A stretch of 64,000 nucleotides of DNA. Source: a virus. Positions 1 to 10,902 of this stretch are shown here, piece after piece (positions within the stretch are counted from its first letter, which is position 1; the number at the start of each line of letters is the position of its first letter). The stretch spans positions 1 to 64,000 of the IMG/VR virus record IMGVR_UViG_3300036820_000010, one strand, 5' to 3'. Below the pieces are notes generated by a model. It saw only the letters and a list, made by a program, of their open reading frames with translations. It was not told the origin of the DNA and ran no database searches. The position numbers and the translations under genes are program-made.

Positions 1-329
1 GTACGGTCTGGTCCGGCTTGTCGGTACGGTCTGGTGTGGATTGTCGGACAGGTCTGGTCTGGATAGTCGGAGAGGTTTGGGAGGGCGAGGTATGTCAGAT
101 GAGGTCTAGAATGGATTGTCGGGGAGATCTGGCGAGGATTGTCGGTGAGGTATGGGCTGTCGGACAGGCTTGGATTGTCGAGAGGGGAGGTGAGGCTTGT
201 CGGGAGGTCTGGGCTGGAAGGTCGGGGAGGCATGGATTGTCAGAAAGGTTCTAGACAGGCTTGTCGGTGCGGCTTGGATTGTCGGTGGGGTATGGAGTGT
301 CGGTGAGGTCTGGATTGTCAGAAAGGCAG
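1..329. repeat. Array of ~55 GG-NNN pentamers grouped 3-5 per unit and separated by GTC; candidate guide-RNA array for the adjacent Cas7-like protein; runs off the left edge
   Basis: GTC separators start at 20,43,66,94,118,141,159,177,199,221,239,263,281,299,317. Unit lengths are mostly 5n+3 (18, 23, 28). Example: ggtac ggtct ggtgt ggatt gtc. Confidence 0.9.
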
Positions 330-343
330 ACTCTTCTTTGTCT

Positions 344-985
344 TCAGTCCCCGATCGGCTCGAACCTCTCTAAAGAATAAGTCCCTGAACCCTGAGAACG
401 GTCGGCACCGATACCGTTGTCCTGTAGGTACTCAAGAATAGTCTTGAGTTGAGACTCCTGGATGACTCCATCGTTGAGGACCCGAATGCGGAAGGAGATA
501 GGAACCTCCAGGGCGTACTCTACACGCTTGATCGAGGTCCGAGGCCCCTGCATCGTCATCACCTGGATAGGACGCTCTTCAACGTGAAAGAAATCCTCAG
601 GGTGGTGGGCCTCTCCGCACCGACACCTGATCTCGCAACCCCCAATACGAGGATCAACGAATACCCTCTCGGCCAGACGAGCACGGAAGTTCTTGACGTC
701 CAGCATTCCCTTGAGGATGTTGGCCCCCTCCTTCAAGGCTGCCTTGAAGGCTCGAGACTCATAGTGAGCAACCAGGTTGCGGTCTCGCCAAAAGACAACC
801 ATGTGGGTCTCTTCGAGATCGATCTCGGCCAGACGCTCGAGTTGAACCTTGGCTGCATCGAGGGCTTCCTTGGGCGCCTTCTTGGACGAAAGCCAAGACT
901 CGATCAACCTAGGATTAGCCGGGAAACCCCCGGTCAACCTAGTGGCCGTGAGTTCTACCTGATACGAATTCCACATGTTGGGCAA
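344..985 (-). CDS. Solo Cas7/Csm3-like RAMP superfamily protein
   Basis: N-terminal strand YQVELTATRLTGG, helix ESRAFKAALKE (like RAMP GSSxKGxxR) and C-terminal Gly-rich loop GIGADRSQGSG. SD AGGAGGAG (993-1000) lies 7 nt before TTG at 985; ATG at 976 is the alternative start. Confidence 0.8.
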   Translation of the reverse strand: MPNMWNSYQVELTATRLTGGFPANPRLIESWLSSKKAPKEALDAAKVQLERLAEIDLEETHMVVFWRDRNLVAHYESRAFKAALKEGANILKGMLDVKNFRARLAERVFVDPRIGGCEIRCRCGEAHHPEDFFHVEERPIQVMTMQGPRTSIKRVEYALEVPISFRIRVLNDGVIQESQLKTILEYLQDNGIGADRSQGSGTYSLERFEPIGD

Positions 986-998
986 TACTAAACTCCTC

Positions 999-1049
999 CT
1001 ACTGATTGATCTGGGGTCGTGTTCCCATGAATATAGTATAACACAGGAA
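999..1049 (-). promoter_or_regulatory. Extended -10 promoter (TGtTATACT) with a leaderless 9-aa uORF MGTRPQINQ whose stop overlaps the SD of the Cas7-like gene
   Basis: TATACT at 1040-1035, ATG at 1028, TAG at 1001-999. A 28-nt block is identical to 4016-4043. Confidence 0.6.
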
Positions 1050-1210
1050 CAGTTTCCTGCACGCCCAGAGAGGAAACGAGGGAGGAGTTTTCTCAACGGT
1101 TAGAAAACACTCGGGGGCCTATATGATTATTGAATACTGACTCAAGTCCAACTATCCGTAAAAGAAATCCACATCTAAGTCAGCATGATCCATAATAAGG
1201 AGAACTCCTG

Positions 1211-2128
1211 ATGGAAACTTACAAATTTCACCCTGCAGCCAACCTTTTCCCGATGATGGATGAAACCCTTACCGAGGAACTTACTGAATCTATCAGGGAC
1301 CAAGGCTATGACGAAACCGAACCCCTCAAGATTTACCAGGGTCAAATCTTGGACGGACGAAATAGGTATCTGGTATGCCAAGCATTGGACATCGAGCCCA
1401 AAGTTGTCGAGTGGGTAGGGAGTGACCCCTGGCATGCCGTGATCCGCTGGAACATGACCAGAAGAGACTTGACCCTGGACCAAAAGACTGCCATTGCTGC
1501 CCAAGCCGCGCCCAAACTTCTAGAAGAAGCAAGGCGGAGGCAAGGAGATAGCCTCCCCCGAGAAGGACAAAGAGGCTTTCAACCCAATGTGCAACAGGAT
1601 CCTGTTGCACATTCTAAGAACCCTACTCGAGATGAACTAGCCAAGACCTTCAACATCAGCACCCACCAAGCAACTCAAGCCATGAAGTTAGCCGACCGGG
1701 AGGAGGATACTGAAGAATCAAGAGAAATCAAAGCCTCCCTAAGAGAAGAAGTCAGGTCGGGAACTAAGAAGGCAGTTGATGCTGTCAAGATACTGACCCC
1801 ACCTACTCCCAGGACTACCCCTGAAGTTCCTGAGTACACGATGAGGGGCCAAGGTTGGAGTTTGTCTACTCCGACTTTGGACACTTCTGGAGTCTGGAAG
1901 TTGATCAGGGATGTAGAACACTCTGTAGAAAGACTCAAGTACTCAGACCAAAGAGACCCCAGGAGAGAAGTTCTTCCCCAAGAGATCCTGGACAAACTTT
2001 TGAGTCTTCTGGACCAGAACGACTTGAGGTCAGAAATCAGTTCCCTGCAGCGTGAAGTAACTTACTTGGAAGACCTCCTCCAGGTCATGAAACAACCAAA
2101 TCGTATGAGGATTTTGAGGAATGGCTAA
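1211..2128 (+). CDS. ParB-like N-terminal domain protein
   Basis: HPAANLFPMM..LTESIRDQG..EPL..ILDGRNR..NMTRRDLT pattern of phage ParB/Srx-domain proteins; SD AAGGAG. Confidence 0.75.
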   Translation: METYKFHPAANLFPMMDETLTEELTESIRDQGYDETEPLKIYQGQILDGRNRYLVCQALDIEPKVVEWVGSDPWHAVIRWNMTRRDLTLDQKTAIAAQAAPKLLEEARRRQGDSLPREGQRGFQPNVQQDPVAHSKNPTRDELAKTFNISTHQATQAMKLADREEDTEESREIKASLREEVRSGTKKAVDAVKILTPPTPRTTPEVPEYTMRGQGWSLSTPTLDTSGVWKLIRDVEHSVERLKYSDQRDPRREVLPQEILDKLLSLLDQNDLRSEISSLQREVTYLEDLLQVMKQPNRMRILRNG

Positions 2129-3606: not shown

Positions 3607-4022
3607 TAGATCTTCTTGCCTTGGCTCGAGTTCAACTCCCTCTGCTTCTCGAGCATGCGTTCCTTCTCGTCGTTGAGTTTCTGTTCATCGATCCGGAAGT
3701 ATTCGGCCAGGATACTAGTCGTCTTGAGGAGAGACTCGAAGTAGTAAGGCCCGTAGACCGTCGAGGGCGGTTGCGGAATCCCAAGGGCTATCTCGACACC
3801 CAGTTGCTCAGTCGACTTCTCAGGAGTGCACTTTGGGCAAGTCTTTGCCGTCAGAGGCAGAAGAGTCTCGCAACCAGAACAGGTATTCGACCACTCACAG
3901 ATGGAGTACCTGGACTTCAACCACTCTAAAAAATCTCCAGCCTCGTTGGGTAGACTCCCCAACGCCTTGAGTTTAGCGTGTTCCGGGTACTCTTCCTTGG
4001 TGTCCGTCTTGGTGTTTCCCAT
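3606..4022 (-). CDS. Zinc-ribbon-containing hypothetical protein, leaderless
   Basis: CSGC..CPKC; ATG 6 nt after TATACT (4034-4029). Confidence 0.7.
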   Translation of the reverse strand: MGNTKTDTKEEYPEHAKLKALGSLPNEAGDFLEWLKSRYSICEWSNTCSGCETLLPLTAKTCPKCTPEKSTEQLGVEIALGIPQPPSTVYGPYYFESLLKTTSILAEYFRIDEQKLNDEKERMLEKQRELNSSQGKKI

Positions 4023-4087
4023 GAATATAGTATAACACAGGAAAAAGTTCTTCGCGTGATCGAGTCTTTTCCTGTATAATCATAGAC
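4016..4087. promoter_or_regulatory. Divergent leaderless promoters
   Basis: Minus strand TGtTATACT-6 nt-ATG(4022); plus strand TATAAT(4075-4080)-7 nt-ATG(4088). Confidence 0.65.
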
Positions 4088-10667: not shown

Positions 10668-10810
10668 CCTGCCTTTAAATCTCGCCTCACCCGCATCTTC
10701 TGCAGGTCTCTTGTTGATCGCGCGTGCATGCGCATTCCGAAGCGCTTCTTGGTAACCTTGCGGTCGCGCCTAGAGATTCGGTTGACCTCAGCGCTGATTT
10801 TGATGCCCAT
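10664..10810 (-). CDS. Leaderless Arg/Lys-rich 48-aa protein (not in ORF track)
   Basis: MGIKISAEVNRISRRDRKVTKKRFGMRMHARSTRDLQKMRVRRDLKAG; preceded by the third copy of the TGtTATACT-ATATTC-ATG promoter. Confidence 0.6.
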   Translation of the reverse strand: MGIKISAEVNRISRRDRKVTKKRFGMRMHARSTRDLQKMRVRRDLKAG

Positions 10811-10902
10811 GAATATAGTATAACAGGTCTACTTAAGTTTCGTCAAGGTGAGGATCCCGAGATTTCTTCTGAGGATCTCGTTATCCTTGATGGACAGAGC
10901 CT

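Follow-up and report, generated by a model that had tools for sequence, protein, structure and literature searches.

A GTC-punctuated pentamer array beside a lone Cas7-type gene in a tailed phage is probably the guide array of a variant VIPR system

RESULTS

A lone Cas7-type RAMP gene lies beside a pentamer array

The window (the whole stretch of DNA analyzed here, 64,000 nucleotides) is the start of an 84,580-bp IMG/VR phage record, which is classed as linear and belongs to a tailed phage of 84.6 kb with portal, capsid, terminase, and DNA polymerase genes. Close to the left end of the window, on the minus strand, lies a gene (positions 344 to 976), here called vipr, whose 210-amino acid product is a lone Cas7-type RAMP with an RRM core, a thumb hairpin, and a C-terminal glycine loop (GIGADRSQGSG), which lies between the final helix and the final strand. 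An AlphaFold2 model of the protein (35 homologues) reached a pLDDT of 91.8, and the best whole-length structural matches of this model (residues 1 to 210) were all Cas7-type RAMPs, with VIA-align Z scores of 12.4 for Csm3 (9g9a_D), 11.9 for a Cmr subunit (6s6b_I), and 10.9 for type VII Cas7 (8yhd_A); Foldseek matched the model to another type VII Cas7 structure (8z4l_F) with an E value of 6e-8. The predicted fold agrees with the original prediction, made from the sequence without database searches, that the gene next to the array is Cas7-like. The product matched no family in Pfam or PHROG, and a search for exact peptide words in IMG/VR found no close relatives. Among isolate phages, the DNA of the record had no match, and tblastn returned one distant match only, to Microcystis phage Mae-JY09 (27.5%). 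Sixty-six homologues shared words with the vipr product, and the family comprised 2,051 cluster representatives (50%-identity clusters) at E ≤ 0.001.

No Cas family was found among the approximately 23 open reading frames scanned with Pfam and PHROG. Divergent from vipr lies a ParB-like gene (window 1211 to 2128, plus strand; PHROG 4715, E 2e-8), and the other flanking genes scanned were small open reading frames and not cas genes. Since the ParB-like gene is not conserved beside vipr in relatives, it is probably not an accessory gene of the system. An all-versus-all BLASTP comparison of the open reading frames of 89 loci, looking for an accessory (vap) gene, found no neighbor family in more than eight loci. 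Elsewhere in the record, the PHROG terminase profile matched two separate stretches of the 904-amino acid large terminase (genome 72704 to 75418, minus strand), which suggests an inserted element, e.g., an intein, or a fused N-terminal domain.

The array has a two-level grammar

Downstream of vipr, beyond a 14-nt junction (positions 330 to 343) without a recognizable terminator or promoter, almost the whole tract from position 329 back to position 1 could be tiled as GTC followed by three to seven GGNNN pentamers. This tract, the left part of a putative guide-RNA (vrRNA) array, holds 15 GTC-delimited units, with GG on the plus strand and the C-rich complement (NNNCC and GAC) on the strand of vipr, so that the GG strand is antisense to the Cas7-like gene, as had been claimed. 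The GTC trimers lie at positions 20, 43, 66, 94, 118, 141, 159, 177, 199, 221, 239, 263, 281, 299, and 317, and their spacings (23, 23, 28, 24, 23, 18, 18, 22, 22, 18, 24, 18, 18, and 18) exactly reproduced the 15 separators and 14 distances first read from the sequence. Ten of the 14 spacings equaled 5n+3 (binomial P = 5e-5); the exceptions (24, 22, 22, and 24) were single-base slips.

The tiling was done by dynamic programming with GG-pentamers, GTC trimers, and penalized single-base skips. It scored 93.5 in the window against 7.3 ± 5.5 in shuffles, and 93 at each of the two record ends (see below) against 7 to 12 (standard deviation about 5) in shuffled sequence. The autocorrelation of G at lag 5 was 0.34 to 0.40 in the array (0.34 for window 1 to 329), and G made up 45% of the plus strand in window 1 to 329, compared to 26% genome-wide. 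Over 100 pentamers, the first position was G in 92% and the second in 90%, positions 3 and 4 were near random (0.07 and 0.02 bits), and position 5 was A or T in 80%. In interior pentamers of this array, position 3 was a pyrimidine in 73%. The claim that substitutions in GG stay purine fared less well, with A in just 8 of 18 departures from GG.

The boundaries of the units were conserved. The final pentamer was GGATT in 8 of 24 units and had T at position 5 in 75%, while the initial pentamer ended in A in 67%, in keeping with the unit ends (GGATT or GGCTT) and unit starts (ending in GA or CA) described originally. The resulting boundary consensus is GGATT-GTC-GGNRA, and read on the C strand a unit is GAC-AATCC-(NNNCC)n, i.e., a conserved 8-nt start followed by variable pentamers. 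GG(A/C)TT-GTC had been proposed as a processing or boundary signal; the conserved boundary stood, while processing at this site belongs to the model discussed below. Two periods coexist in the array, 5 nt inside units and 18 to 33 nt from separator to separator, and the units differ from one another in sequence. A period of 18 nt appears solely as the size of a three-pentamer unit. Units were short in this phage (median of four pentamers), and those of relatives mostly had five to seven.

The array continues at the other end of the record

The original prediction proposed retrieving the sequence left of position 1, and there, at the other end of the record (genome 84253 to 84528), the array resumes with the same grammar and in the same orientation, all 11 GTC spacings being 5n+3. 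With both record ends pooled, 21 of 25 spacings were 5n+3 (P = 1e-11), and only 13 of 25 were divisible by 3. The two halves carry different units, their sole similarity being 80% over about 80 nt. The record terminus itself (genome 84529 to 84580) consists of an 18-nt poly-G followed by 34 nt resembling window 2 to 35; the alignment matched at 28 positions, and C stood in the window at five of the six mismatches. A poly-G run with an error-ridden copy behind it is what two-colour Illumina artifacts typically look like, and repeat arrays commonly break short-read assemblies. The terminus looks like an artifact of sequencing or assembly, formed where a circular or permuted map closes on itself; despite its classification as linear, the record is probably circular or permuted. 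Two sequencing runs, both of DNA, contain the sequence: the Logan assembly of the source run likewise begins at position 8, and in the other run with this phage positions 1 to 150 were uncovered. As the array breaks both assemblies of the source run, end-to-end continuity is drawn from the 28/34 overlap only. Read in this way from the sequence, the two halves would belong to a single array, about 26 units long and spanning some 600 bp or more, that was split by linearization.

The array is bordered on its left by a non-coding stretch of about 800 bp with two further features. At genome 83436 to 83516, at least five TTCCAAG...CTTGGAA palindromes lie within 80 bp; they gave only sub-threshold, miRNA-like matches in Rfam and could be operator, iteron, or partition sites. 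At genome 83596 to 83666, a sharply AT-rich tract (tatattataattataatgtaatagaaattttcaaaaactgcaaaaattttttttt) in this genome of 55% GC contains a near-consensus minus-strand promoter, TTGAAA-N19-TATAAT, and is possibly a replication-origin unwinding element or a strong promoter.

Arrays of this kind accompany vipr in relatives

A profile-guided scan of IMG/VR gave 98 confirmed loci, of which 79 were kept. Arrays were detected by excess identity at lag 5 and not by a Fourier measure of period 5, whose signal is lost when the 3-nt punctuation resets the phase. In 73 of the 79 loci, the gene was directly adjoined by a strand-skewed array of 120 to 2,000 bp with 5-nt periodicity, usually 0 to 200 bp downstream of vipr, sometimes upstream, and sometimes on both sides. 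When the same detector was applied to the 84.5-kb genome of the window phage, it found the two end regions and two marginal matches only. The closest relative, on a contig of an Acidimicrobiaceae MAG (61% identity), has a GTC-punctuated array of 1,150 bp in the same place and orientation, internal to its contig. A scan of IMG/VR with the pattern TGTCGGNNNGGNNNGGNNTGTCGG gave 93 loci, mostly chance matches or collagen-like coding repeats, and only a handful of true arrays.

When arrays were tiled with inserts of any length allowed, the phase breaks in the branch of the window phage were overwhelmingly 3 nt long and read GTC (10/10 breaks in locus L104, 15/17 in L112, and 13/13 in L132). A few sub-lineages had other breaks, namely TCG with NNNTG pentamers (L124 and L134), TTA (L144), or breaks of 4 or 2 nt. 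In a sister branch, the units were (G-Y-A-N-N)4-6 followed by a single G, i.e., 5n+1. Short pentamer runs closed by phase-breaking punctuation are thus a trait of the family. Some arrays were very long, at 1.1 to 2 kb (L107, 954 to 2912 and 4922 to 6044; L113, 3787 to 4981; L142, 3729 to 4918), those of L107 flanking vipr on both sides, and five or six loci had a second vipr-like open reading frame nearby.

Arrays differ between close relatives

Between L100 and L104, the vipr DNA was 88% identical, while the arrays (about 680 and 365 bp, respectively) aligned no better than shuffled sequence. The phages L100 and L101 are near-identical, and three substitutions set their arrays apart, each of them at a free position in one of two adjacent pentamers. 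In a second soil run, whose flanking sequence was about 98 to 99% identical to that of the window phage, 7 nt stood in place of 84 nt of the array. Invariance of the variable positions among related phages had been named at the outset, together with a lack of RNA, as an outcome that would speak against the original reading, and in all three comparisons the arrays differed. Such hypervariability between close relatives is the behavior expected of guides.

The locus fits the published definition of VIPR

VIPR (Viral Interference Programmable Repeat), a CRISPR-like system with which phages silence DNA, was first reported in 2026 (bioRxiv 10.64898/2026.04.26.720920, 10.64898/2026.04.26.720927, and 10.64898/2026.10.15.759431) and has been proposed as the ancestor of CRISPR. 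As set out in the text of these preprints, Vipr, a lone RAMP, binds vrRNAs that are built from GGY/NN units of 5 nt, with one protomer per unit; GGY is sequestered and NN is presented, pairing with double-stranded DNA such that every third target base is skipped. Binding silences transcription, and the natural targets are rival phages and satellites. The same text distinguishes seven types, mostly viral, with varied array architectures, including "staggered" tail-less arrays and NNNGG repeats in which only GG is fixed; these two appear in the text and the legend of fig. S18 of the discovery preprint, where they were not confirmed experimentally, and the later preprint adds further non-canonical scaffolds. 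The only type studied at the bench, as described there, is the GGY/NN, tailed, gene-sense one.

The locus in the window has the elements of this published definition, i.e., a lone RAMP, flanking 5-nt repeats, a mostly viral distribution, and varied architecture, and hence fits a VIPR system; we put the probability that the tract is the vrRNA array of a phage VIPR system at roughly 0.87. As this kind of system has been known since 2026, the locus is not categorically new. A structured 3′ tail of 40 to 60 nt was absent, the units being separated by 3 nt only, and this makes it VIPR but not type II; Rfam found no family and no hammerhead at the locus. The locus represents a variant branch, with no tail, GTC/GAC punctuation, 5n+3 units, and an antisense GG strand correlated with a change in the base-reading loop. 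The text of the preprints does not describe tail-less 3-nt GTC punctuation, an antisense GG strand together with a different glycine loop, or a C-rich co-transcript.

The link to the bench-studied Vipr of Escherichia phage SUSP1, for which a PDB chain (36pp_D) is named "SUSP1 Vipr protein", ran through the sister branch. The family profile did not match SUSP1 Vipr significantly in a direct hhalign comparison (0.5% probability). The branch of the window phage matched the sister branch with an E value of 3e-48. Between the sister branch and SUSP1 Vipr, the match covered 47 C-terminal residues (86% probability, E 5e-6), where the sister loop GLGQWRN..GRF aligned with GVGDWRP.FGRF of SUSP1.

A search for targets of 149 units under 12 pairing rules in 1.6 Mb, which was underpowered, gave counts equal to those of shuffled guides. 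Units of three to seven pentamers provide only 6 to 14 (or 9 to 21) informative bases, compared to 18 to 32 in SUSP1 guides. An excess over shuffled guides under one rule ("NNN + 1 skip") was due to duplicated loci and was discarded.

The orientation of arrays favors a C-rich guide transcribed with vipr

The original prediction offered two possible RNAs, a G-rich transcript convergent with the Cas7-like gene or the C-rich read-through of its mRNA. These are also the two that remain, and the evidence leans toward the latter: we somewhat favor the view that the transcript is the C-rich strand, (NNNCC)n-GAC, made together with vipr. The strand of the array was strictly linked to the glycine loop of the protein. 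Where the loop was GxGx[DS]R[SG][QR], the C-rich strand lay on the gene strand (34/34 loci), and where it was GLGQ[FW]RN (or GGERGMG), in the sister branch, the G-rich strand did so (26/26). The loop thus switches with the strand: it is GxGxDRSQGxG here, while the sister branch has GLGQ[FW]RN and SUSP1 has GVGDWRP. The orientation relative to vipr was fixed for upstream and downstream arrays alike. Four loci have the array upstream of vipr; there, the preceding co-directional gene ended where the array started, and within 20 nt of the last pentamer came AAAGGA and the start codon (ATG) of vipr. Such arrays, ending about 20 nt before the vipr ribosome-binding site, leave no room for a promoter, and the vipr mRNA of these loci must therefore carry the C-rich array as its leader. 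In 24 of 29 cases, flanking genes ran in the direction of vipr, and the distance was often no more than 40 to 100 nt.

In the window phage, sequence signals point to a probable vipr promoter and leader at positions 1001 to 1065 (minus strand), with an extended -10 element (TGTGTTATACT). A 28-nt module in this region (1022 to 1049), which recurs at 4016 to 4043 and 10806 to 10825, reads TGTGTTATACTATATTCATGGGAAC on the vipr strand and comprises a -10 box and a leaderless ATGGGAAC start; this ATGGGAAC opens a 9-codon mini-ORF, after which come AGGAGGAG and the start codon of vipr (ATG, 976). The module is styled like strong TTGACA-N17-TATATT-ATGGGAAC cassettes seen at genome 77971, 80653, 81060, 81728, and 82409. 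No terminator was found between vipr and the array, nor any terminator-like site in window 1 to 1300. An intrinsic terminator on the minus strand (CGGGGGGCTTTTCTCCCCG then TTTGATTTTG) lies at genome 84081 to 84063, 170 nt beyond the array, and the only minus-strand gene upstream of it is vipr. A C-rich RNA would thus run from a promoter at about 1035 to 1065 to the terminator at genome 84081 to 84063 and contain units of GACAAUCC-(NNNCC)n. This strand is predicted to be open: over 329 nt, it folded at −26 kcal/mol (z +2.5), with 99 of 100 shuffles folding at least as well; the G strand reached −108 kcal/mol. Only three intrinsic terminators turned up in 22 high-GC relatives, too few for terminators to decide between the strands.

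Several observations count against a C-rich guide. Long untranslated C-rich RNA is expected to invite Rho termination. GG is 91% conserved on the plus strand, and the published scaffolds all contain G, as the text of the VIPR preprints has it. A weak plus-strand promoter candidate, with an extended -10 element (TCGAGA-N18-TGTGATTAT), is present at genome 84158 to 84187, about 65 nt before the first unit. The conserved GG and the promoter candidate speak for the alternative, a VIPR array with a G-rich guide convergent to vipr, for which transcription would start at a separate promoter left of the array and cleavage would occur at GGAUU-GUC. Pentamers that are also present in SUSP1 vrRNAs (GGTCT, GGTGT, and GGTAT) and the pyrimidine bias at position 3 also fit such a guide, and the discovery preprint lists NNNGG repeats as a known alternative. 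The bias was, however, not branch-wide (0.04 bits over 1,310 pentamers). A G-rich guide would also need an antisense orientation in 34/34 loci and, for upstream arrays, a promoter inside the vipr coding region; no plus-strand terminator lies between the array and vipr, and the G-strand RNA is predicted to pair heavily with itself. We regard a G-rich guide as possible but doubtful.

Reading the C strand as a canonical "fixed-fixed-semi-NN" scaffold fitted the array of the window phage, with A or T at position 5, and failed across the branch. We give an even chance to a more specific reading of the C-rich guide, in which the branch with the GxGxDRSQGxG loop switched its scaffold from GG to CC and its guides are (NNNCC)n cut from the vipr transcript, with an 8-nt GACAAUCC handle; all three free bases of each unit might then take part in target reading.

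A 9-mer, GGTGTCGAG, or its complement occurs in 32 copies (13 plus, 19 minus) in the 84.5 kb, e.g., at window 3173, 16623, 48216, and 62109. An 8-mer copy (GTGTCGAG) lies at genome 84155, inside the weak plus-strand promoter candidate, and a similar sequence, TTGTCGAG, forms the array boundary at window 174 to 181.

The array is unlikely to be a DNA element or a coding repeat

A DNA-level element, whether an origin or R-loop primer site, pac repeats, a telomere-like end, or a G-quadruplex tract, is very unlikely. The array does occupy both ends of the record, the Logan assembly from the source run starts within it, it borders the non-coding stretch with the palindromes and the AT-rich tract, and its G/C strand asymmetry is strong. 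However, the two ends are in direct orientation and carry different units rather than copies, the poly-G and error-ridden copy look artifactual, and repeat arrays commonly break assemblies. The arrays of many relatives lie inside long contigs (37 to 200 kb), which argues against a genome terminus or packaging site, and they follow the RAMP gene rather than terminase or replication genes, the terminase here being 9 kb away. The two-tier G-quadruplex and the genome-end or packaging element, which the original prediction had listed as alternatives, are thus disfavored by contig-internal arrays that always accompany the RAMP gene.

Least probable of all is a low-complexity coding repeat or a C-rich, Rho-dependent vipr terminator without guide function, even though open frames of 77 to 83 codons cross the tract on both strands and the C-strand RNA is C-rich, G-poor, and unstructured, as in the rut sites on which Rho loads: 5n+3 units shift the frame at nearly every unit, and with only 13/25 spacings divisible by 3 an in-frame coding repeat is excluded, as the original prediction had held; the collagen-like coding repeats met in the pattern scan (L096 and L007) look quite different; and a Rho terminator needs neither 600 to 2,000 bp, strict 5-nt phasing, conserved punctuation, nor hypervariable positions, and would not lie upstream of the gene. 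Overall, the origin, packaging-site, telomere, and coding-repeat readings are unlikely.

DISCUSSION

We describe a locus that resembles the type II VIPR of phage SUSP1 in having a phage-borne, lone, small RAMP with a thumb and a G-loop and, beside its gene, 5-nt units repeated in tandem, each combining a fixed doublet with hypervariable bases, in arrays that differ between close relatives. The two also differ. According to the text of the preprints, SUSP1 vrRNAs consist of 9 to 16 GGY/NN units and a pseudoknot tail of 40 to 60 nt on the gene strand, and the SUSP1 locus indeed showed, on that strand, runs of GGTNN and behind them a tail of about 45 nt. The array in the window has units of three to seven pentamers, GTC as the only "tail", a GG strand antisense to the gene, and variation at all three bases after GG. 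The loop of its Vipr, GxGxDRSQGxG, lacks the aromatic residue described as stacking on G2 in SUSP1, and no vap partner was recognized beside its gene (BLASTP, 89 loci). The "staggered" VIPR arrays, which have 1-nt overlaps according to the legend of fig. S18, differ from the 5n+3 GTC units of the window, while the sister branch, (GYANN)4-6 + G with a spacing of 5n+1, probably corresponds to this published form.

Other guide systems share some features with the locus. Like Csm3, Cmr4, and type VII Cas7, Vipr would be a RAMP that polymerizes on a guide RNA, each subunit covering a fixed number of nucleotides. In type III systems, the lengths of mature guides step by 6 nt; here, the period is 5 nt, the scaffold is sequence-specific, and, unlike for type III and VII Cas7, there is no CRISPR repeat-spacer array. 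The repeat-spacer period of CRISPR-Cas is about 60 to 79 nt, compared to the 5 and 18 to 33 nt found here. As a handle on C-rich guides, the conserved 8-nt unit start would be reminiscent of the 8-nt 5′ tag of CRISPR RNAs. TIGR-Tas systems also have compact tandem guide arrays in phages; they are characterized by an 18-nt period and a Nop-domain Tas protein, and the window has neither as such, the adjoining protein being a RAMP.

By analogy with SUSP1, Vipr would be expected to polymerize along the repeat RNA with one protomer per 5-nt unit, holding the fixed doublet and exposing the variable bases to double-stranded DNA, and the outcome may be silencing of rival mobile elements or host genes. 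Three nucleotides of punctuation, which read GTC or GAC depending on whether the G or the C strand is taken, close each unit, and this break in the 5-nt phase may end each protein filament and mark a processing site. A doublet spacing of 8 instead of 5 would interrupt the cooperative filament and leave the linker exposed for cleavage.

The apparent genome end of the record is probably an assembly break inside a repeat array. The locus and its family of roughly 2,000 protein clusters show an architecture that lacks tails, is punctuated by 3 nt, and has units growing in steps of five; the strand of the array and the base-reading loop of the protein are strictly linked. This raises the question of which strand is the guide, and whether this branch reads CC instead of GG. 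If it does, it would constitute a second, differently coded family of VIPR guides; the VIPR scaffold code would then be evolvable, and the branch would provide a second, orthogonal guide chemistry for programmable silencing.
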